NCBI GenBank assembly: GCA_000004985.1
Contig: GG738894.1
From: Naegleria gruberi
Taxonomy: Eukaryota
Reading direction: 5' to 3' (one strand)
Length of the DNA: 64,000 bases
The notes below the pieces were generated by a model. That model saw only the letters and a program-made list of their open reading frames with translations, did no database searches and was not told where the DNA came from. The position numbers and the translations under genes were made by a program. Shown here one piece after another: positions 9,069-27,500 of this stretch. How positions within the stretch are numbered: position 1 is the first letter of the stretch; each line of letters opens with the position of its first letter.

Positions 9069-11633
9069 ATGGTCAAGTTCAGTAAAGAAATACTCGAAAG
9101 GCTCTTACTCGACAGTAACAAGATTCGTAACATTAGTATTATTGCTCACGTTGATCATGGTAAATCAACACTCACTGATCAATTGGCTTTAGCAGCTGGT
9201 TTAGTGGATGAAGATGCTGCAGGTGAGAAGAGAGTTTGCGACGTAGATAAGAATGAAATTGAAAAGGGTATTACCATTAAATCAACAAGTTTGAGTATGG
9301 TTTTGGAAAATCCAGACAAGGAGAATGATCATCATTTGGTTAATTTGATCGATTGTCCAGGTCACATTGATTTCTCATCTGAAGTTAGTACAGCTTTGAG
9401 AATTACTGATGGTGCAGTGTTGATTGTAGATGCTGCTGAAGGTTGTAGAGGTCAAACTGAAACAGTAATTAGACAATCTCTTCAAGAAAGAATTCGTCCA
9501 GTTCTCTTCATTAACAAGGTTGACCGTTTAATTGAAGAAATGCAATTTACTGAAGAAGAAAGTTATCAAAACTTTTTAAGAATTATCGAGTCTGTGAATG
9601 CTCTATTATCAACTTATTCTGATGAGTCAGTTTCTGTTGATCCAGTTGATTGTAACATTGCTTTTGGATCAGGTAAGATGGGTTGGGCTTTCACTTTGGA
9701 GCAATTCGCTCAATTATATAGCAAGAAGTTTAAACTTCCTGTAGAGAAGGTTATTAACAAATTATGGGGTGAAAATTATTATGATCACTCAACTAAGAAG
9801 TTTACCACTGAACCTTATTCATCGACAAGTGGTCAACAATTGAAGCACACTTTCTGTGAATTCATTTTAGAACCTATTTTCAAGATTTTCAAGTTGGTTA
9901 GAGAACATGAAATTTCGAGTGAAGGTATTTTGTCAACAGATTTGGAAAATATCATTAGTGCATTGTCTATACCTCTGACGAAAGAAGAAAAGAGAAAAGA
10001 GCCGAAACTTTTAGCTAAATCAATCATGAGAAAGTTCCTCCCAGCTCACAAACCTCTAGTTCAAATGATTATCAACCATTTACCTTCTCCTAAGGAAGCT
10101 CAAAAGGTCAGATATGATAGCCTCTACACTGGTGAAGATTTGACAGATCCATACGCTACTGGTATTAAGGAATGTGATCCAAATGCACCACTGGTTGTCT
10201 ATGTCAGTAAGATGGTACCTATGCACTCTAATACTAGCTCTAGTATGAGTAATAATGTTGGTCGTTTTATTGCTCTAGCTCGTATATTCTCTGGTAGTTT
10301 GACTCAATCAACTAAGGTGAGAATTTTGGGTCCTAACTATGATCCAATTGCTAAGAAAGATGTTTTCCATACAAGTATTCAAAGATTGTTAGTCATGATT
10401 GGTAAAAATACTGAAAGCATCACTCAAGCTTCTTGTGGTGCCATCGTAGGTATTGTTGGTCTTGACAAGTACATTATCAAATCATGTACATTGACAGAAG
10501 AAGGACAAGTTGCATGCATGCCAATTAAGAATATGAAATACTCTGTGAGTCCTGTAGTTCAAATGGGAGTTGAGCCAGTCAATCCAGCAGATTTATCTCG
10601 ATTTGTTGAAGGTTTGAAACGTCTCGTTCAAAGTGATCCTCTATTGGAATGTAAGCAAAATGATAGTGGTCAACATATTCTTGGAACAGCAGGTGAATTG
10701 CATTTGGAAATTTGTTTAAAGAATTTAGAAGAAGAATATGCAAGAGGAATTCAAATTAAAAAGTCTCCTCCTGTTGTCACTTTCCACGAAACAGTTTCAA
10801 ATAAGAATGGTGACATGGTCATGGCAAGAAGTGCTAACGGCCACAATCGTTTATATATGCAAGCTGAACCAATCAGTGAGGAATTAATTGAAATGATTAA
10901 GGAAGGTCAATTGCCAATGGATGATCAAAATAAGAGAGCAAAGATTTTAGAAATTGACTTTGAATGGGATCCTAGCATAACAAAGAGAATTTGGAGTTTT
11001 GGACCTGAAGCTGATAAGGGTAGTAACATTTTGGTAAATGCAACCAAGTCAGTTGACTATATTAATGAAATTCAACAATATGTGGTCACTAGCTTCCAAC
11101 AAAGCAGTTCTTCAGGAGGTTTATGTGACGAAGCAATGAGAGGTGTTTTATTCAAATTTAATGATTGTAATCTTCATGCAGATTCTATCCATCGTGGAGC
11201 TGGTCAAATTCTCCAAGCAACATCTCGTGTCATGACTGCTAGTCAATTGAGAGCTGATCCAAAGTTAGTTGAACCAATGTATCTTGTTGAAGTTCAATGT
11301 CCTCAATCAGTGATGGGTTCTGTCTATAGTGTCATTTCTAATAGAAGAGGTGTTATCAAATCTACTGAAATGGTAATTGGTACTCCTCTCGTTAGTATAA
11401 CTGGTAATTTACCTGTGCTGGAAAGTTTCGGTTTAACAGAAGAGTTGAGAGGTGTTACTCAAGGACAAGCTTTCCCTCAATGTAGTTTCAGTCACTGGAA
11501 AGTTATGGAAGACAATGTTTATGATCCTCAATCTAAAGTTCACAAACTCATCAAATCTATCAGAAAGAGAAAGGGTCTTAAGGAAGATATACCACTCTAC
11601 ACAGATTACTGTGATACAATGCCTAAACAATAA
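9069..11633 (+). CDS. Elongation factor 2 family GTPase, EF-2 paralog (854 aa, intronless)
   Basis: N-terminus MVKFSKEILERLLLDSNKIRNISIIAHVDHGKSTLTD, the G-domain motifs NLIDCPGHIDFSSEV and NKVDR, domain IV LHADSIHRGAGQ (diphthamide His kept) and a C-terminus …ESFGLTEELRGVTQGQAFPQCSFSHWKVM…RKRKGLKEDIP collinear with EF-2. It diverges from canonical EF-2, while the neighbouring RPL30 and PPIH are highly conserved, so it is likely a paralog rather than the translational EF-2. Confidence 0.85.
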   Translation: MVKFSKEILERLLLDSNKIRNISIIAHVDHGKSTLTDQLALAAGLVDEDAAGEKRVCDVDKNEIEKGITIKSTSLSMVLENPDKENDHHLVNLIDCPGHIDFSSEVSTALRITDGAVLIVDAAEGCRGQTETVIRQSLQERIRPVLFINKVDRLIEEMQFTEEESYQNFLRIIESVNALLSTYSDESVSVDPVDCNIAFGSGKMGWAFTLEQFAQLYSKKFKLPVEKVINKLWGENYYDHSTKKFTTEPYSSTSGQQLKHTFCEFILEPIFKIFKLVREHEISSEGILSTDLENIISALSIPLTKEEKRKEPKLLAKSIMRKFLPAHKPLVQMIINHLPSPKEAQKVRYDSLYTGEDLTDPYATGIKECDPNAPLVVYVSKMVPMHSNTSSSMSNNVGRFIALARIFSGSLTQSTKVRILGPNYDPIAKKDVFHTSIQRLLVMIGKNTESITQASCGAIVGIVGLDKYIIKSCTLTEEGQVACMPIKNMKYSVSPVVQMGVEPVNPADLSRFVEGLKRLVQSDPLLECKQNDSGQHILGTAGELHLEICLKNLEEEYARGIQIKKSPPVVTFHETVSNKNGDMVMARSANGHNRLYMQAEPISEELIEMIKEGQLPMDDQNKRAKILEIDFEWDPSITKRIWSFGPEADKGSNILVNATKSVDYINEIQQYVVTSFQQSSSSGGLCDEAMRGVLFKFNDCNLHADSIHRGAGQILQATSRVMTASQLRADPKLVEPMYLVEVQCPQSVMGSVYSVISNRRGVIKSTEMVIGTPLVSITGNLPVLESFGLTEELRGVTQGQAFPQCSFSHWKVMEDNVYDPQSKVHKLIKSIRKRKGLKEDIPLYTDYCDTMPKQ

Positions 11634-11684: not shown

Positions 11685-12680
11685 TTATTTTCTTAGTGAT
11701 ATTAATTGTTTCATTTCACTTATGAATTTTGCTCCTTCACCACCAATTCGATTGCCAGCAATATCAAGTGATGTCAATTGTTTCATTTCACTAATGAATT
11801 TAGCTCCTGCATTACCAATTTCATTGCGAGTAATATTAAGTGATGTTAACTGCTTCATTTCATTGATGTATTTTGCTCCTTCATCACCAATTACATTGTA
11901 AGAAATATTAAGTGATGTTAATTGTTTCATATCACCTATGAATTTAGCTCCTGCATCACCAATTACATTGTTAGCAATATTAAGTGATGTTAATTGTTTC
12001 ATTTCACTTATCAATTTTACTTCTTCATCACCAATTTGATTTCCACCAATATCAAGTGATATTAATTGTTTCATTTCACTAATGTATTTTGCTCCTTCAC
12101 CACCAATTCTATTATTATATATATAAAGTGATGTTAATTGTTTCATTCCACTGATGAATTTTGCTCCTTCACCACCAATTACATTGCCATTAATATTAAG
12201 TGATGTTAATTGTTTCATTTCACTTATCAATTTTGCTCCTTCACCATCAATTCGATTGTAACTAATATCGAGTGATATTAATTGTTTCATTTCACTGATA
12301 AATTTGAGTTTTTCTATGCCTCCAAGCAAATATCCCAAAAATTTAAGATTAACAATACTATTCATAAATTGACTTTTCATGAATAATTCAACTCGTTTCT
12401 CTGTAAATTTTTTTTTAAATTGAATAACAAGTTTTGAACGTTCCTTGATCACATTAAAGAATTGTTTTGAAATTAAAGTACAATTATTTAAAATAAACCA
12501 CGAATCATCAATCATGCAAATTATTTCAAAACAAATATCATCTGAAAATGTTTCTTGTTCGAGTTTCACATGCTTTTTTACTTTCTCTTCCATAATATTA
12601 TTATTATTATTGTTAGTGAATATTTCATCCGAACTAATTAATTGATGATTTTCAAAATCTTGTCTGTTTCGTTTGCTCAT
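11685..12680 (-). CDS. Leucine-rich repeat protein (RNI-like 24-aa LRRs, ~8-9 units) with a weak F-box-like N-terminal region
   Basis: Repeats such as ISEMKQLTSLNI.NNVIGDEGAKFI, each 24 aa. The N-terminus …DDICFEIICMIDDSWFILNNCTLISKQFFNVI is loosely F-box-like. Confidence 0.8.
   Translation of the reverse strand: MSKRNRQDFENHQLISSDEIFTNNNNNNIMEEKVKKHVKLEQETFSDDICFEIICMIDDSWFILNNCTLISKQFFNVIKERSKLVIQFKKKFTEKRVELFMKSQFMNSIVNLKFLGYLLGGIEKLKFISEMKQLISLDISYNRIDGEGAKLISEMKQLTSLNINGNVIGGEGAKFISGMKQLTSLYIYNNRIGGEGAKYISEMKQLISLDIGGNQIGDEEVKLISEMKQLTSLNIANNVIGDAGAKFIGDMKQLTSLNISYNVIGDEGAKYINEMKQLTSLNITRNEIGNAGAKFISEMKQLTSLDIAGNRIGGEGAKFISEMKQLISLRK
11698..12300. repeat. Tandem array of ~8 near-identical 72-bp units (coding for the LRRs)
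   Basis: The unit …attaattgtttcatttcact(t/a)atgaatttt/agctcct(t/g)ca(c/t)caccaatt… recurs with 72-bp periodicity and high nucleotide identity. Confidence 0.85.
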
Positions 12681-13411: not shown

Positions 13412-16400
13412 CTAGGCCAATTCAACATCAGTGGCACCAGCCATAATTAAATCTTTTGCCAATGAAGCAGATGCTTTCTTCTTCATCATGATTACAATAG
13501 TTGTAATCAATACAGCAACACCACCTCCAATAACTGCAACAGAAACAATTGGAACAACAACTGCTGCAACAATCACTCCTGTATTCTCACTGTGTACTGA
13601 GTCAATAGCAAGGAAAGGAAGCGAAGTCAATCTTGCTGAAATCTGAGGAATGTTTTTTAGTTGAAGAGAAAGAGCTGTTTCAGTTTCAACTCTGAAGGAA
13701 ATGAGCGTCGAGTTGAGGGAAAGAGCTGCCTTAGCTGTTAAGGAACCTGTTTTGGAAAGAGAGGCTGGTAGATTAAATGGAATGGAAGATGTCAGCTGTT
13801 GGTGGACAGTTGAAGAGGAATCAAATTGACCATCTAATAGGAATTCAATAAAAATGTTAATGGATTGGTTGACATAATAATCAAGAAATGAAGAATCTTG
13901 AATGGAAAGAGAAATAATGGTTGAAATATCTCCAACAATATCACTAGTATTGTTGAATGATAACTTCATTGCTTGGGAAAGGAATTTAAATTGACACTTA
14001 TTGCCAATGAAATCCTTCTTACAATGACAGGTGTCATAATTAACACAATCACCTTGAGAGGAGCAAACTTTTGAATCAACAGATGTTTCACCATAACAAT
14101 AGGTAATGTTACATTGTGGTCCGAACCATTTGCTTTCATTCACACATTTACAGTAATCAAATGAACGACAAGTTCCATTTCCAAGATTGCAAACTTGTGA
14201 GCTTTCTTGTTCTATGCCAAAACATGAAGTAAATTGACAATTTGATCCACTGTATCCATATTCACATTCACATTGATCTACATTAAGGCATGTTCCTCTT
14301 CCACTACATACAGAGCTTGAACTTTCCAATATTCCATTGCATTCCACTAGTTCACAATTGTTTCCTCCAAATCCATTCTCACAAATGCAAGTATTCAAGA
14401 ATTTGCAAACACCATGAGAATTACAAACTCTTGTTGAATTGAATTCGACACCATTACATTTAAAGTATTGACATTCTTCACCAAAATAATTGAAATCACA
14501 TTTACAATAATCAGTTGACAAACATTTTCCATTTCCAGAACAAGATCTATTATCCAACTTTTCAATGCCAAAGCAGATTGGATTTTTAAGCTTGCATTCA
14601 TTTGGTGCATCGCAATACTGTTCAGTATCATTGCAGACACTGCTGTCATTTGCCAATTTACCAAAACAAATTGGAAATTGACACGTTGTCGAAGGTCCAT
14701 ATCCATCTGAACAATTACAATTGTTATAGGAAATGCATTTTCCATTTCCAAAGCAAACATTGCTGTCATCAGAAGGTACAGAATTACAAGTAGTTTTTTC
14801 ACAATTAGTTCCATAATAATTCGAATCACATTTACAATAGTTTGGATTCGTACATTGACCATTCGAAGAACAAGCTCTGGAATTGTTGGAAGGAACTCCG
14901 TGACAGATAGGTATCTCACAATTCAATCCAGTCCATCCACTGTTGCAGCTGCAAGTATCTGGAGCTAGGCAAGTACCGTTTCCTTGATTACAGATTTGAT
15001 TAGTTTGATTCGAATAGATACCAAAACAGTTAATCAATTCACATTCAGATCCATCATACCCACTCATGCATTGACACTGATTCGGTGCTGTACAATTTCC
15101 ATGAGAATTACAAACCAATGGATCTGTACCAAGTTTCGTATTACAAAAAGGAATTTCACATTGAGATCCTCCATATTTGGAATTACATTGACACTGATCA
15201 ACTGAAATGCAATTTCCTTGTCCTGAACATACACTCAATGATTGATTTGCTAAAATTCCAAAACAAATTGGAATTTCACAAAAACTGCCAGAGTACATTG
15301 AGGAATTAAAACATTGACAAGTGTCATATTCAAGACAATTGCCATTTCCAGAACAAACAGATGGATCATTAGAGAGTGTACCATTACATTTTGATATATT
15401 GCAAAATGTTCCTTCGTAATTTTCATTGCATTCACAAATATTGTAATCAACGCATGTTCCATGATTCGAACAAGTATTTGAATTATTCGAAAACTTTCCA
15501 TCACAAGTAGTGACATTACACTCAATTCCATAATAATTGGAATTACATGAACAATTATTCACATCTATACATTCACCATTCATACTACAATATAAAGTTG
15601 AATTCTTTCCAAAACATTTTGGCAGTTCACATGCCATACCATAATAATTATTGTTACATTGACAGGTGTCCACATCAATACATAATCCATGTGATGGGCC
15701 TCCACATGCTTCATTCCCAGACTTTGTGAAACACAATGGATTGCATAATCTTCCATCAGAGCTCAATACTAAACCATCCTCACAGTATGGATATAATTTC
15801 CTAACAGTTCCAGAAGCAATCATTTCAGTAATGTAAACTTCATTCTTTCCACTCACAAAAATTCCATTTGTATTGCTTATTAAACAAGTAAGCGCATCTG
15901 AATCGTCTGGACAACTGGAGCCAATTAGTCCAACACCAGCAATTTGCCTTAACGTTCCATTATAAACCTTAACTCTACCTGATGATTCAGCAATATAGAA
16001 TTCATTCTTACTTGTTCTAAATATACCCTTTGGAGAGGAAAGATTCTTGAGAAAGTAAGTTCCAGAACTAGCAGAGCCATAAGCTCCTGGTTTACCAATG
16101 CAATCAAACGAACTGAAATAAATATCTGATGGGAAAGAAAGTGCCACTCCAACGGGTTTATCGAAAACATCTAATACATAATAATTTTGTGAGGCCAAGT
16201 TGAAAATTCCAATATCACCATTTCCAAATATTCCATAAATGGCAAAAACTAATTGATTTAATCTCTTGTCTAAAATTAAAAATCTTACATTACCAACACC
16301 AGTTTTTAGTGTTGTAATGGTATTGGAAATTTCATCAACAACCCGTATATTGCCATTATCTTCGCCAATGTAAATTTTTCGGCTAGTTTCGTCCACCCAA

Positions 16401-22812: not shown

Positions 22813-24508
22813 TTATTGTTGGAATGAACATTTCTTAACTATTAATTGTTTTTGGAGACATTGATGGATTGTGATTGTGGAAAATGAGGATTTTCCACTC
22901 AATTGATATCTTTTCCTATCTAATTCAATTAAGGATTTAAGAGTTTCTCTGTTTTTTGGTTTTTTAACAATTGCAGACTTATNNNNNNNNNNNNNNNNNN
23001 NNNNNNNNNNNNNNNNNNNNNNNNNNNNNNNNCCATATATAGATCAAATAAATAAACCACACAAACGATTAGTGACATGGCCATGACAAAGGAAAATACT
23101 GAACCTGCCATAATATCTGTATATTCAATACTTGAAATATTCTGAGATAGACGCAATCCAAGGAAAATTGCATAAAAGGCAATGAAAATAATTGAAAATA
23201 CCAAGTTGAGTATTACAATAAATGCCTTACTTGTGAGAACAAACTTGATCCATTTAAATCTCTTTTCAAGAGTCATATCAACCTTATTTTCATCCAATTT
23301 TGCCATAATTTCGTACACATATCTGAAGGCAACAAATCTCACATTTAGAATCGTATAATTTAAAATTGCTAAACAATAGAACAAGCAAGAAATGAAAGAT
23401 GAAACATATTTGACAACAGTAGAAGCTTCAGAATTACTTTCTAATAAAATTGCATTGGAAATAATGAATAAAAATACCAATTCTATCAAAATAGATATCA
23501 ATGATAAATATGGAATGATTCCTCTACTTTTGGTTGGAGTTTTTCTATGAGTGGAAATGACACCAATTAGGGTACAGATAGTAAATAGGATTAATAAGGA
23601 TCCAATAACAATCGATGCAATGGCAATGTTCTTATCTGTTACCGTGTTGAGTTTGGACTCTACAAACGCAGAGAAAGTTGTTGTGTGATTACAGAGACAG
23701 TTGACTGTCGAAGATGCAGCATCAATTTGTGTGGTACATCCATTAGAGAGCCATTCATTTTTTGTTTCATTGAAATATCTACAAGTAATTTTCAAGGTTG
23801 ATGATGAAATTGTTGAATTATCCACTGTAAATGTCATTTTGATTGGATTAATGAGTTCACTAACTTGTAAAAAGTTTCCATTTGAAATATACTTCAAATC
23901 TATTGGATTTACAATATTGACCAATGTAGAGTTTGATAGATAGGTTGAAGTATTTGTGAAATTATTGGTCAACTTGGTGCTACTTGAGGAATCAAAAATT
24001 TTAGCCAACTTTTCAACATTCAAATAATTGACACTGGAAATTGAAACTCCTTCCAATAGTAACAACTCACTTGGAGTTTCAATTGATGTATTTCCATTAC
24101 TGACCAATAAAATGTTGGCATTTCTGACAACTGACACAACAAATGAGCTAGTACTTGCAGAAAACACATTATCTTTAACAGAACTTGCTTTGGATGAAAC
24201 AATTAACATGTTATCAATAACTTCTGTTGAATTAGCAATGTAATTATTTGAACTGAGAATATTAGAAAAGGTGTTCAAAACTTGACTGACAGTTGTGTCA
24301 ATTGTGGAAGAAGCTTGCAATGAGGAAGATGATAATTTTGTTAAATCTGTTGATATTTCATTCACCATTGAGGAAACAGTTGAAATAATAGATGAAGTGA
24401 CAGCTGACATGGATGAAATAACATTCAATGCCTTAGTTACCTTTGAGGTTTCGTCAAGATTTGTAGTATTTCTTTCACTTGTTGCCAAAGCATTGGTAAC
24501 TAAAGTAA
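22813..24508 (-). CDS. GPS-domain-containing multi-TM receptor (adhesion-GPCR/latrophilin-like, lrlA-like), truncated 5' by the N run and interrupted by the 50-N gap
   Basis: The open frame runs from the gap at 24508. A Ser/Thr-rich extracellular region is followed by a GPS motif …EWLSNGCTT…VNCLCNHTTTFSAFV (approx. 23660-23815) and then at least 5 hydrophobic TM helices before the 22983-23032 gap. After the gap, the ORF-track frame stops at 22929, while another frame continues as a Lys-rich tail to a TAA at 22813-22815. The frame across the gap is unknown. Confidence 0.7.
22983..23032. other. Assembly gap (50 N)
   Basis: An N run in the sequence. Confidence 1.
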
Positions 24509-27500
24509 NNNNNNNNNNNNNNNNNNNNNNNNNNNNNNNNNNNNNNNNNNNNNNNNNNNNNNNNNNNNNNNNNNNNNNNNNNNNNNNNNNNNNNNNNNNN
24601 NNNNNNNNNNNNNNNNNNNNNNNNNNNNNNNNNNNNNNNNNNNNNNNNNNNNNNNNNNNNNNNNNNNNNNNNNNNNNNNNNNNNNNNNNNNNNNNNNNNN
24701 NNNNNNNNNNNNNNNNNNNNNNNNNNNNNNNNNNNNNNNNNNNNNNNNNNNNNNNNNNNNNNNNNNNNNNNNNNNNNNNNNNNNNNNNNNNNNNNNNNNN
24801 NNNNNNNNNNNNNNNNNNNNNNNNNNNNNNNNNNNNNNNNNNNNNNNNNNNNNNNNNNNNNNNNNNNNNNNNNNNNNNNNNNNNNNNNNNNNNNNNNNNN
24901 NNNNNNNNNNNNNNNNNNNNNNNNNNNNNNNNNNNNNNNNNNNNNNNNNNNNNNNNNNNNNNNNNNNNNNNNNNNNNNNNNNNNNNNNNNNNNNNNNNNN
25001 NNNNNNNNNNNNNNNNNNNNNNNNNNNNNNNNNNNNNNNNNNNNNNNNNNNNNNNNNNNNNNNNNNNNNNNNNNNNNNNNNNNNNNNNNNNNNNNNNNNN
25101 NNNNNNNNNNNNNNNNNNNNNNNNNNNNNNNNNNNNNNNNNNNNNNNNNNNNNNNNNNNNNNNNNNNNNNNNNNNNNNNNNNNNNNNNNNNNNNNNNNNN
25201 NNNNNNNNNNNNNNNNNNNNNNNNNNNNNNNNNNNNNNNNNNNNNNNNNNNNNNNNNNNNNNNNNNNNNNNNNNNNNNNNNNNNNNNNNNNNNNNNNNNN
25301 NNNNNNNNNNNNNNNNNNNNNNNNNNNNNNNNNNNNNNNNNNNNNNNNNNNNNNNNNNNNNNNNNNNNNNNNNNNNNNNNNNNNNNNNNNNNNNNNNNNN
25401 NNNNNNNNNNNNNNNNNNNNNNNNNNNNNNNNNNNNNNNNNNNNNNNNNNNNNNNNNNNNNNNNNNNNNNNNNNNNNNNNNNNNNNNNNNNNNNNNNNNN
25501 NNNNNNNNNNNNNNNNNNNNNNNNNNNNNNNNNNNNNNNNNNNNNNNNNNNNNNNNNNNNNNNNNNNNNNNNNNNNNNNNNNNNNNNNNNNNNNNNNNNN
25601 NNNNNNNNNNNNNNNNNNNNNNNNNNNNNNNNNNNNNNNNNNNNNNNNNNNNNNNNNNNNNNNNNNNNNNNNNNNNNNNNNNNNNNNNNNNNNNNNNNNN
25701 NNNNNNNNNNNNNNNNNNNNNNNNNNNNNNNNNNNNNNNNNNNNNNNNNNNNNNNNNNNNNNNNNNNNNNNNNNNNNNNNNNNNNNNNNNNNNNNNNNNN
25801 NNNNNNNNNNNNNNNNNNNNNNNNNNNNNNNNNNNNNNNNNNNNNNNNNNNNNNNNNNNNNNNNNNNNNNNNNNNNNNNNNNNNNNNNNNNNNNNNNNNN
25901 NNNNNNNNNNNNNNNNNNNNNNNNNNNNNNNNNNNNNNNNNNNNNNNNNNNNNNNNNNNNNNNNNNNNNNNNNNNNNNNNNNNNNNNNNNNNNNNNNNNN
26001 NNNNNNNNNNNNNNNNNNNNNNNNNNNNNNNNNNNNNNNNNNNNNNNNNNNNNNNNNNNNNNNNNNNNNNNNNNNNNNNNNNNNNNNNNNNNNNNNNNNN
26101 NNNNNNNNNNNNNNNNNNNNNNNNNNNNNNNNNNNNNNNNNNNNNNNNNNNNNNNNNNNNNNNNNNNNNNNNNNNNNNNNNNNNNNNNNNNNNNNNNNNN
26201 NNNNNNNNNNNNNNNNNNNNNNNNNNNNNNNNNNNNNNNNNNNNNNNNNNNNNNNNNNNNNNNNNNNNNNNNNNNNNNNNNNNNNNNNNNNNNNNNNNNN
26301 NNNNNNNNNNNNNNNNNNNNNNNNNNNNNNNNNNNNNNNNNNNNNNNNNNNNNNNNNNNNNNNNNNNNNNNNNNNNNNNNNNNNNNNNNNNNNNNNNNNN
26401 NNNNNNNNNNNNNNNNNNNNNNNNNNNNNNNNNNNNNNNNNNNNNNNNNNNNNNNNNNNNNNNNNNNNNNNNNNNNNNNNNNNNNNNNNNNNNNNNNNNN
26501 NNNNNNNNNNNNNNNNNNNNNNNNNNNNNNNNNNNNNNNNNNNNNNNNNNNNNNNNNNNNNNNNNNNNNNNNNNNNNNNNNNNNNNNNNNNNNNNNNNNN
26601 NNNNNNNNNNNNNNNNNNNNNNNNNNNNNNNNNNNNNNNNNNNNNNNNNNNNNNNNNNNNNNNNNNNNNNNNNNNNNNNNNNNNNNNNNNNNNNNNNNNN
26701 NNNNNNNNNNNNNNNNNNNNNNNNNNNNNNNNNNNNNNNNNNNNNNNNNNNNNNNNNNNNNNNNNNNNNNNNNNNNNNNNNNNNNNNNNNNNNNNNNNNN
26801 NNNNNNNNNNNNNNNNNNNNNNNNNNNNNNNNNNNNNNNNNNNNNNNNNNNNNNNNNNNNNNNNNNNNNNNNNNNNNNNNNNNNNNNNNNNNNNNNNNNN
26901 NNNNNNNNNNNNNNNNNNNNNNNNNNNNNNNNNNNNNNNNNNNNNNNNNNNNNNNNNNNNNNNNNNNNNNNNNNNNNNNNNNNNNNNNNNNNNNNNNNNN
27001 NNNNNNNNNNNNNNNNNNNNNNNNNNNNNNNNNNNNNNNNNNNNNNNNNNNNNNNNNNNNNNNNNNNNNNNNNNNNNNNNNNNNNNNNNNNNNNNNNNNN
27101 NNNNNNNNNNNNNNNNNNNNNNNNNNNNNNNNNNNNNNNNNNNNNNNNNNNNNNNNNNNNNNNNNNNNNNNNNNNNNNNNNNNNNNNNNNNNNNNNNNNN
27201 NNNNNNNNNNNNNNNNNNNNNNNNNNNNNNNNNNNNNNNNNNNNNNNNNNNNNNNNNNNNNNNNNNNNNNNNNNNNNNNNNNNNNNNNNNNNNNNNNNNN
27301 NNNNNNNNNNNNNNNNNNNNNNNNNNNNNNNNNNNNNNNNNNNNNNNNNNNNNNNNNNNNNNNNNNNNNNNNNNNNNNNNNNNNNNNNNNNNNNNNNNNN
27401 NNNNNNNNNNNNNNNNNNNNNNNNNNNNNNNNNNNNNNNNNNNNNNNNNNNNNNNNNNNNNNNNNNNNNNNNNNNNNNNNNNNNNNNNNNNNNNNNNNNN

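Follow-up and report, generated by a model that had tools for sequence, protein, structure and literature searches.

Naegleria gruberi encodes, beside its canonical translation elongation factor 2 (EF-2, or eEF2), a divergent paralog of it, and orthologs of this paralog occur in other heterolobosean genera. The gene occupies positions 9069–11633 on the plus strand of the window analyzed here, a stretch of 64,000 nucleotides from contig GG738894.1 (GenBank assembly GCA_000004985.1). Taken as a whole, the observations are probably best explained by a conserved, divergent eEF2 subfamily that is maintained beside canonical eEF2 and supplies a second, less abundant translocase-type factor. As judged by sequence comparison, the 854-residue type is a distinct and conserved eEF2 subfamily older than the species N. 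gruberi itself, since orthologs are found in other Naegleria, in Willaertia, and in Acrasis. Real sequence in the window amounts to 24,508 bases (GC content about 0.33), with a 50-N gap at 22983–23032; N padding fills positions 24509–64000, where the scaffold presumably ends.

Gene Structure and Protein Architecture

The complete coding sequence of the divergent eEF2 paralog is a single uninterrupted open reading frame (ORF) that starts with ATG and encodes 854 amino acids plus stop, and its product is identical to N. gruberi NEG-M XP_002672882.1 (D2VSK3), which carries the GenBank label "elongation factor 2." Because the protein aligns collinearly with eEF2 over residues 1 to about 850, the gene is intronless. 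The full EF-G/EF-2 set of Pfam domains is present, all above threshold (GTP_EFTU, domain 2, EFG_III, EFG_IV, and EFG_C), and among solved structures the protein matches eEF2 chains best, over their whole length (7old_C, E = 1.8e-250, 837 bits). The ORF, the Pfam set, and the alignment to structure chains agree with one another and bear out a first-pass annotation, made from the letters of the window, which had described an intronless EF-2 of 854 residues collinear from its first residues to its C-terminus.

The protein resembles canonical eEF2 (yeast EFT1/2, 1N0U/1N0V) in its length class, five-domain fold, G'' insert, and RKRKGLKE C-terminal tail. Its N-terminus starts as in the canonical EF-2 of Naegleria (MVKFS...), with neither an N-terminal extension nor a presequence in the window protein, and the P-loop begins at residue 26. 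An AlphaFold model (predicted local distance difference test, pLDDT, 80.7) has apo yeast eEF2 as its best structural match (1n0v_C, template modeling score 0.84–0.86), with low-confidence loops at switch I, switch II, and a domain II loop at residues 387–397 (10227–10259, plus strand; pLDDT below 50). Residues 391–397 of this last loop (SSMSNNV) form a seven-residue domain II insertion that N. fowleri shares and that neither canonical eEF2 nor the Acrasis paralog has. An organellar EF-G was rejected as a candidate, given the lack of a presequence and the eEF2-type G'' insert.

Bit scores, missing domains, and a rooted neighbor-joining (NJ) tree all agree that the protein is neither Snu114 nor EFL1, as the first-pass annotation had held. 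Snu114/EFTUD2, a eukaryotic GTPase likewise derived from EF-2, shares the core domains but has an acidic N-terminal domain (PF16004). EFL1/Ria1 is a eukaryotic EF-2-derived GTPase that binds ribosomes, but exceeds 1000 amino acids and carries a large insertion and PF25118. No match to PF16004, the EFTUD2 N-terminal domain that is present in all four outgroup Snu114 sequences, was detected in the window protein, nor was any match to PF25118 at E up to 0.001, a domain carried by the outgroup EFL1 sequences. A Snu114 identity was rejected on the missing acidic EFTUD2 domain, a score against solved structures of about 494 versus 837 bits, and a separate clade; an EFL1/Ria1 identity was rejected on the length of 854 residues, the missing PF25118 match, a score of 383 bits, and again a separate clade.

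For the phylogeny, outgroups were drawn from a 50%-identity representative search and verified by Pfam, and trees were built by distance (NJ) methods. Run against EF-2, Snu114, and EFL1 sets, it places the window protein with eEF2: paralog and canonical eEF2 group together against the Snu114, EFL1, and archaeal EF-2 (aEF2) outgroups, with bootstrap support of 99% under one distance correction and 91% under the other. A scan of genome contigs for an archaeal EF-2 outgroup yielded no confirmed relative. The paralog clade is itself monophyletic with 100% NJ bootstrap. Its position is that of a sister group to the whole canonical eEF2 sample (96 and 41% under the two corrections), and nesting of the paralog with heterolobosean canonical EF-2 receives 1–6% bootstrap only. 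Since the branches are long and the methods distance-based only, this sister position gives no date for the duplication, which at the least predates the split of Naegleria and Acrasis. Should the NJ sister position be real, and long-branch attraction not its cause, the paralog could even descend from an ancient duplication of eEF2 in eukaryotes and have been lost almost everywhere else.

The 50%-identity library also contained many full-length EF-2-like proteins of about 800–870 residues that are 33–45% identical to the query (P0184–P0333); in many of them the P-loop, the G5 region, or the diphthamide loop is altered. Environmental eukaryotes may commonly have divergent proteins of the eEF2 type. 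An NJ tree with about 60 highly divergent EF-2-like representatives was dominated by long branches and was not used for inference.

A Separate Canonical EF-2 and Several Paralog Copies

A search of the N. gruberi genome located a separate canonical EF-2 (XP_002674553, D2VMW0; 837 amino acids) that is 48% identical to the window protein, and the window gene is thus a paralog and not the housekeeping EF-2, as the first-pass annotation had supposed. D2VMW0 falls in one 90% cluster with its EF-2 counterparts from N. fowleri and N. lovaniensis, with which it shares more than 90% identity. Because these orthologs occupy syntenic loci in the two species, D2VMW0 is unlikely to be an assembly contaminant. 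The canonical EF-2 of Naegleria shares a four-residue deletion with the canonical EF-2 of Acrasis, and the paralogs are without this deletion.

The window protein had also been called clearly more diverged than a housekeeping EF-2 should be, and comparison with canonical sequences is in accord. We scored 338 near-invariant positions, each conserved in at least 93% of 156 canonical eEF2s; this canonical set consists of the matches most similar to the query and spans fungi, red and green algae, Anaeramoeba, and jakobid-related and heterolobosean sequences. At 80 of the 338 positions the window protein departs from the canonical residue (range within its clade, 55–80); the median among canonical eEF2s is 5 such departures and the maximum 18, and the canonical EF-2 of N. 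gruberi has 9. The divergence is spread across all domains, with small insertions in G'' and domain II, and no single domain has decayed. That the window gene is simply a fast-evolving housekeeping EF-2 would fit its GenBank label and the retention of all hallmark motifs. Yet the canonical D2VMW0 in the same genome combines few deviations with high identity across Naegleria species, the canonical gene has strong codon bias in the sister species, and both gene types are also found in N. fowleri, N. lovaniensis, and Acrasis, as in N. gruberi. The coexistence of the two genes in four genomes refutes a sole, fast-evolving EF-2, and we regard the housekeeping explanation as vanishingly improbable.

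In N. gruberi the paralog is present in several versions. The 90%-identity cluster of the window protein contains three more full-length proteins of 854 residues (D2VH01, D2VUK9, and D2VSM3), 99% identical with 4–7 residue differences, and a 246-residue fragment (XP_002668580); the relations among these copies rest on protein accessions and scaffold lengths. D2VSK3 and D2VSM3 are both listed with a 499,907-bp longest contig, which suggests that they are separate loci on one scaffold. The near-identical copies, at least four in number, point to either a recent copy-number expansion or unresolved haplotypes.

A Subfamily Shared Across Heterolobosean Genera

The window protein has orthologs in N. 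lovaniensis (65% identity), N. fowleri (63%), Willaertia magna (57%), and Acrasis kona (49%), together with about nine orthologs, 49–65% identical, that derive from metagenomes or the Sequence Read Archive. The named organisms with the paralog are all Heterolobosea (three Naegleria species, Willaertia, and Acrasis), and the environmental clade members bear no taxon labels. The contig of one environmental member looks eukaryotic and carries Kelch, Tet/JBP, and hAT-type genes, and another clade member lies on a cDNA-like contig. The paralogs of N. fowleri (L002:10001-12607) and N. lovaniensis (L003:10001-12586) are intronless, mutually syntenic, and single-copy in the loci retrieved.

The clade is marked by substitutions at the near-invariant positions defined above. 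In yeast numbering, which was checked against PDB 1n0u, the clade-wide changes are V135C, C136R, V137G/S/T, L215K, R66K, E527Q, and F780L; all 14 clade members agree on C135, R136, K215, Q527, and L780, and 13 of the 14 carry R66→K. Five signatures, EGCR[GST]Q, (G/A)KxG(W/F), KGITI, (G)QH in domain III, and ESFGL, are all present in the window protein. In a profile search built on the clade, members score 1420–1508 bits and canonical eEF2s of normal length no more than 1292. Over-long fused or duplicated predictions (P0005, P0008, and P0011) score 1383–1744 bits, and a 749-residue fragment (P0028), probably a partial clade member, scores 1340.

Selection and Codon Usage

For the paralog, comparison of N. 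fowleri with N. lovaniensis gives a nonsynonymous divergence (dN) of 0.059 and a synonymous divergence (dS) of 0.61 (dN/dS 0.097, by the Nei-Gojobori method), compared with a dN of 0.010 and a dS of 0.25 (dN/dS 0.040) for canonical EF-2, and protein evolution of the paralog is about 6 times faster than that of the canonical gene. The dN/dS of 0.097 indicates that the paralog is a constrained and functional gene under purifying selection. In the same two species, the paralog has an effective number of codons (ENC) of 42–45 and the canonical gene one of 32; the ENC of the N. gruberi paralog is 36.8, within the background range of 34–45 for the window. The weaker codon bias and the higher dS together suggest that the paralog is less expressed than the canonical factor.

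A redundant duplicate drifting toward a pseudogene would also be highly divergent, and one degenerate relative of the window gene (P0007, described below) does exist in the same genome. However, the 854-residue ORF is intact in four copies, dN/dS is about 0.10 between N. fowleri and N. lovaniensis, and both the gene and its invariant catalytic residues are retained across genera that are only about 50% identical. On the intact copies, the low dN/dS, and the retention across genera we rejected the pseudogene explanation, which we consider very improbable.

Remodeled Switch I and Retained Catalytic and Tip Residues

The motifs of the window protein, all on the plus strand, divide into those kept as in canonical eEF2 and those that set the clade apart. 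G1, the P-loop AHVDHGKST (residues 26–34; 9144–9170), is the same as in canonical eEF2. G3 in switch II (DCPGH, residues 95–99; 9351–9365) keeps the catalytic His (yeast H108), and G4 reads NKVD (residues 149–152; 9513–9524). KGITIKST (residues 66–73; 9264–9287) keeps the G2 Thr, with the Arg of RGITI replaced by the Lys that is shared by 13 of the 14 clade members. Two further segments are clade signatures: EGCRGQ (residues 124–129; 9438–9455), where canonical eEF2 has an invariant EGVCVQ, and FGSGKMGW (residues 199–206; 9663–9686), which adjoins G5 and reads FGSGLHGW in canonical eEF2. In domain IV, the loop SANGHN (residues 588–593; 10830–10847) replaces canonical SPNKHN, so that N590, H592, and N593 are kept and the Lys becomes Gly. 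The diphthamide loop HADSIHRGAGQ (residues 703–713; 11175–11207) retains its His (His708), as the first-pass annotation had noted; by translation the codon lies at 11190–11192, one base off the earlier estimate. Across the clade, G1, the G2 Thr, G3 with the catalytic His, and G4 are invariant in 14/14 members, as are H694, D696, H699 (the diphthamide site), R700, N581, and N584. The paralog keeps the G1, G2 Thr, G3, G4, catalytic His, and HxDxxHRG features of canonical eEF2 and differs from it in a remodeled switch I, the clade signatures, small insertions, fast evolution, and, in the sister species, weak codon bias. In the N. fowleri and N. lovaniensis paralogs the sequence at the diphthamide His is HRNAGQ.

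The remodeled switch I segment, AGEKRVCDVDKNE (residues 51–63), lies at 9219–9257, where the first-pass annotation had placed it. That annotation read the segment as having lost all three threonines of canonical EF-2, the targets of eEF2 kinase among them. The replacement itself stands (the yeast T57 position is Cys and the T59 position Val), but a special loss of kinase control does not follow. At the position of human Thr56 (yeast T57), the main target, the canonical EF-2 proteins of N. gruberi (P0128) and N. fowleri (P0126) have Met, reading RFMDTR instead of RFTDTR, and Met occupies this position in 36 of the 156 sampled canonical eEF2s. Since the housekeeping EF-2 of Naegleria already has Met there, the loss of the Thr does not set the paralog apart. 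More distinctive are R60→D, D62→N, and R66→K, at sites that are invariant in 156/156 canonical eEF2s; R60D and D62N are shared only with the Naegleria/Willaertia subgroup, and R66K is clade-wide. From these changes we infer an altered coupling between nucleotide state and the ribosome, and not a lost phospho-regulation.

A Degenerate Offshoot in N. gruberi

A further protein, XP_002681727.1 (D2V235, P0007; 830 amino acids), is an offshoot of the paralog specific to N. gruberi, which the tree joins to the window protein as its sister (100% bootstrap). It has lost most of switch I, the GITI threonine included, and DxPGH has become DCPAF, which removes the catalytic His. It still has the P-loop, NKID, and HADSIHRGAGQ as its diphthamide loop. 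It deviates at 144 of the 338 canonical-invariant sites, and a near-identical variant of 834 residues occurs on a 2.6-kb contig in the European Nucleotide Archive. XP_002681727.1 is likely a pseudo-GTPase.

Proposed Function and Alternatives

The window protein is most likely a specialized, less expressed ribosome-dependent GTPase or translocase isoform, a reading that we draw from comparative sequence data. On the strength of the five-domain fold, the retained G motifs, catalytic His, and tip residues, and the lack of a presequence, we propose that the paralog would occupy the factor site of the cytosolic 80S ribosome and hydrolyze GTP there. The remodeled switch I and the flanks of G3 and G5 (R60D, D62N, R66K, VCV→CRG, and L215K) would change the coupling between nucleotide state and the ribosome, and the paralog would serve as a second, less abundant translocase-type factor for particular conditions or life stages.

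Several observations weigh against this proposal. First, 80 of the 338 near-invariant positions are changed, including three invariant switch I residues and the Lys of SPNKHN, and classical translocation may for this reason be impaired. Second, two further positions vary within the clade: 6 of the 14 members have Leu at yeast H583, and 2 of the 14 have Asn at yeast G701, where 156/156 canonical eEF2s have Gly. The same Gly-to-Asn change has been described in parabasalid EF-2 without diphthamide (PMC6143161). Third, the deleted switch I and destroyed DxPGH of XP_002681727.1 indicate that at least one descendant within the subfamily would work, if it works at all, without GTP hydrolysis. Fourth, the contrast in codon bias between paralog and canonical gene was measured in the sister species only. 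Finally, the literature searched yields no expression, ribosome-association, or activity data for any clade member; the text on N. fowleri cyst RNA sequencing makes no mention of EF-2, the 19 supplements of the N. fowleri genome paper contain no match, and the accessible part of a Cu-proteomics supplement has no EF-2 rows.

Two paralogs of bacterial EF-G, Tet and EF4, have taken on other roles, as has archaeal aEF-2p. The window protein could similarly be a ribosome-associated GTPase that does not translocate, occupying an idle 80S factor site in encystment or starvation or acting in rescue or quality control. The deviations at 80 of the 338 canonical-invariant sites would fit such a binder, as would the altered switch I, the lost SPNKHN Lys, the Leu at H583 in part of the clade, and a codon bias as weak as expected of a factor outside the bulk translation machinery. 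The GTPase-dead offshoot could act only by binding, and canonical eEF2 is itself seen on hibernating ribosomes in solved structures (e.g., 8q87 and 9rvu). The domain IV tip matters for contact with the decoding center in translocation. In the clade, however, this tip is the best-kept part of the protein (H694, D696, H699, R700, N581, and N584 being invariant), and the catalytic His and G motifs are intact, whereas aEF-2p and Tet lose exactly such tip residues (PMC6143161). With these points in view, a non-translocating binder is possible but unlikely.

Like the window protein, aEF-2p is a second, divergent EF-2 that exists beside a bona fide EF-2 and keeps its GTPase motifs (Narrowe et al., 2018). 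In aEF-2p both domain IV loops are not conserved, the diphthamide His included, and it occurs in lineages without dph genes (PMC6143161); unlike it, the Naegleria-type paralog keeps both tip loops. Because the Naegleria-type paralog branches inside eukaryotic eEF2, the two are of independent origin.

Bacterivorous soil amoebae meet diphthamide-targeting ADP-ribosyltransferases and natural products that bind eEF2, and the paralog might be a backup translocase, or a decoy, that resists such toxins or inhibitors. Fast protein evolution under overall purifying selection is compatible with this idea, as are the expanded copy number in N. gruberi and the flanks of the diphthamide His, which vary by species with the His kept (HRNAGQ in N. 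fowleri and N. lovaniensis). The divergence, though, extends over all domains instead of focusing on the toxin-contact surface. In N. gruberi, moreover, the paralog loop HADSIHRGAGQIL is nearly identical to HTDAIHRGAGQIL of its canonical EF-2, and diphtheria toxin does not inhibit Acanthamoeba according to one review, owing to weak binding or defective transport (PMC8402458). We therefore hold a toxin-resistant backup or decoy to be improbable.

The specialized, less abundant translocase-type factor remains our preferred interpretation. A broader and more tentative extension, to which we give limited credence, is that Heterolobosea keep a second, functionally distinct translocase system, in which an active divergent eEF2 with a rewired switch I would act at particular stages, under stress, or under attack by toxins or inhibitors, joined in N. 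gruberi by the GTPase-dead XP_002681727, which would regulate ribosomes through binding only.

Neighboring Genes in the Window

The first-pass annotation named RPL30 and PPIH as conserved neighbors, and an L7Ae/L30e-family ORF (1054–1398) and a cyclophilin (1555–2136) are indeed present. Other ordinary eukaryotic neighbors are a UCH-family fragment, a PI31-like ORF, and pieces of ABC transporters. Downstream of the EF-2 paralog, on the minus strand, is a leucine-rich repeat (LRR) protein of 331 amino acids with "GxxGAKxISEMKQLTSLxI" repeats of about 24 residues (11685–12680), which ends 51 bp from the EF-2 stop codon in a tail-to-tail arrangement. The minus strand also carries a 994-residue ORF with teneurin-type EGF repeats (13412–16396) and an ORF with a GPS motif and a seven-transmembrane region (22929–24488) that spans the 50-N gap. 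The products of these two ORFs are predicted to be adhesion-receptor-like proteins.

Implications

eEF2 is usually viewed as a single, extremely conserved housekeeping factor. Snu114 and EFL1 predate the last eukaryotic common ancestor, and both left translation elongation. The paralog described here is lineage-restricted and selectively maintained, and it keeps its catalytic and decoding-tip residues with about a quarter of the supposedly untouchable positions changed. An earlier survey lists nine eEF2-class proteins for N. gruberi and mentions several divergent eEF2s in passing (Atkinson, 2015; PMC4342817); the same genes are treated there, without analysis, as a species-specific duplication, and no further analysis of the N. 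gruberi eEF2 versions was found in the literature searched. To this our analysis adds the spread across heterolobosean genera, the diagnostic signatures, the selection on the gene, the retained translocase hallmarks, and the dead-GTPase derivative.

The paralog family constitutes a natural experiment on which eEF2 residues are truly required, and a candidate means by which amoebae, the pathogen N. fowleri among them, might carry out condition-specific or toxin-resistant translation. At the otherwise invariant Gly beside the diphthamide site, the N. fowleri paralog departs from both the human and the canonical proteins.

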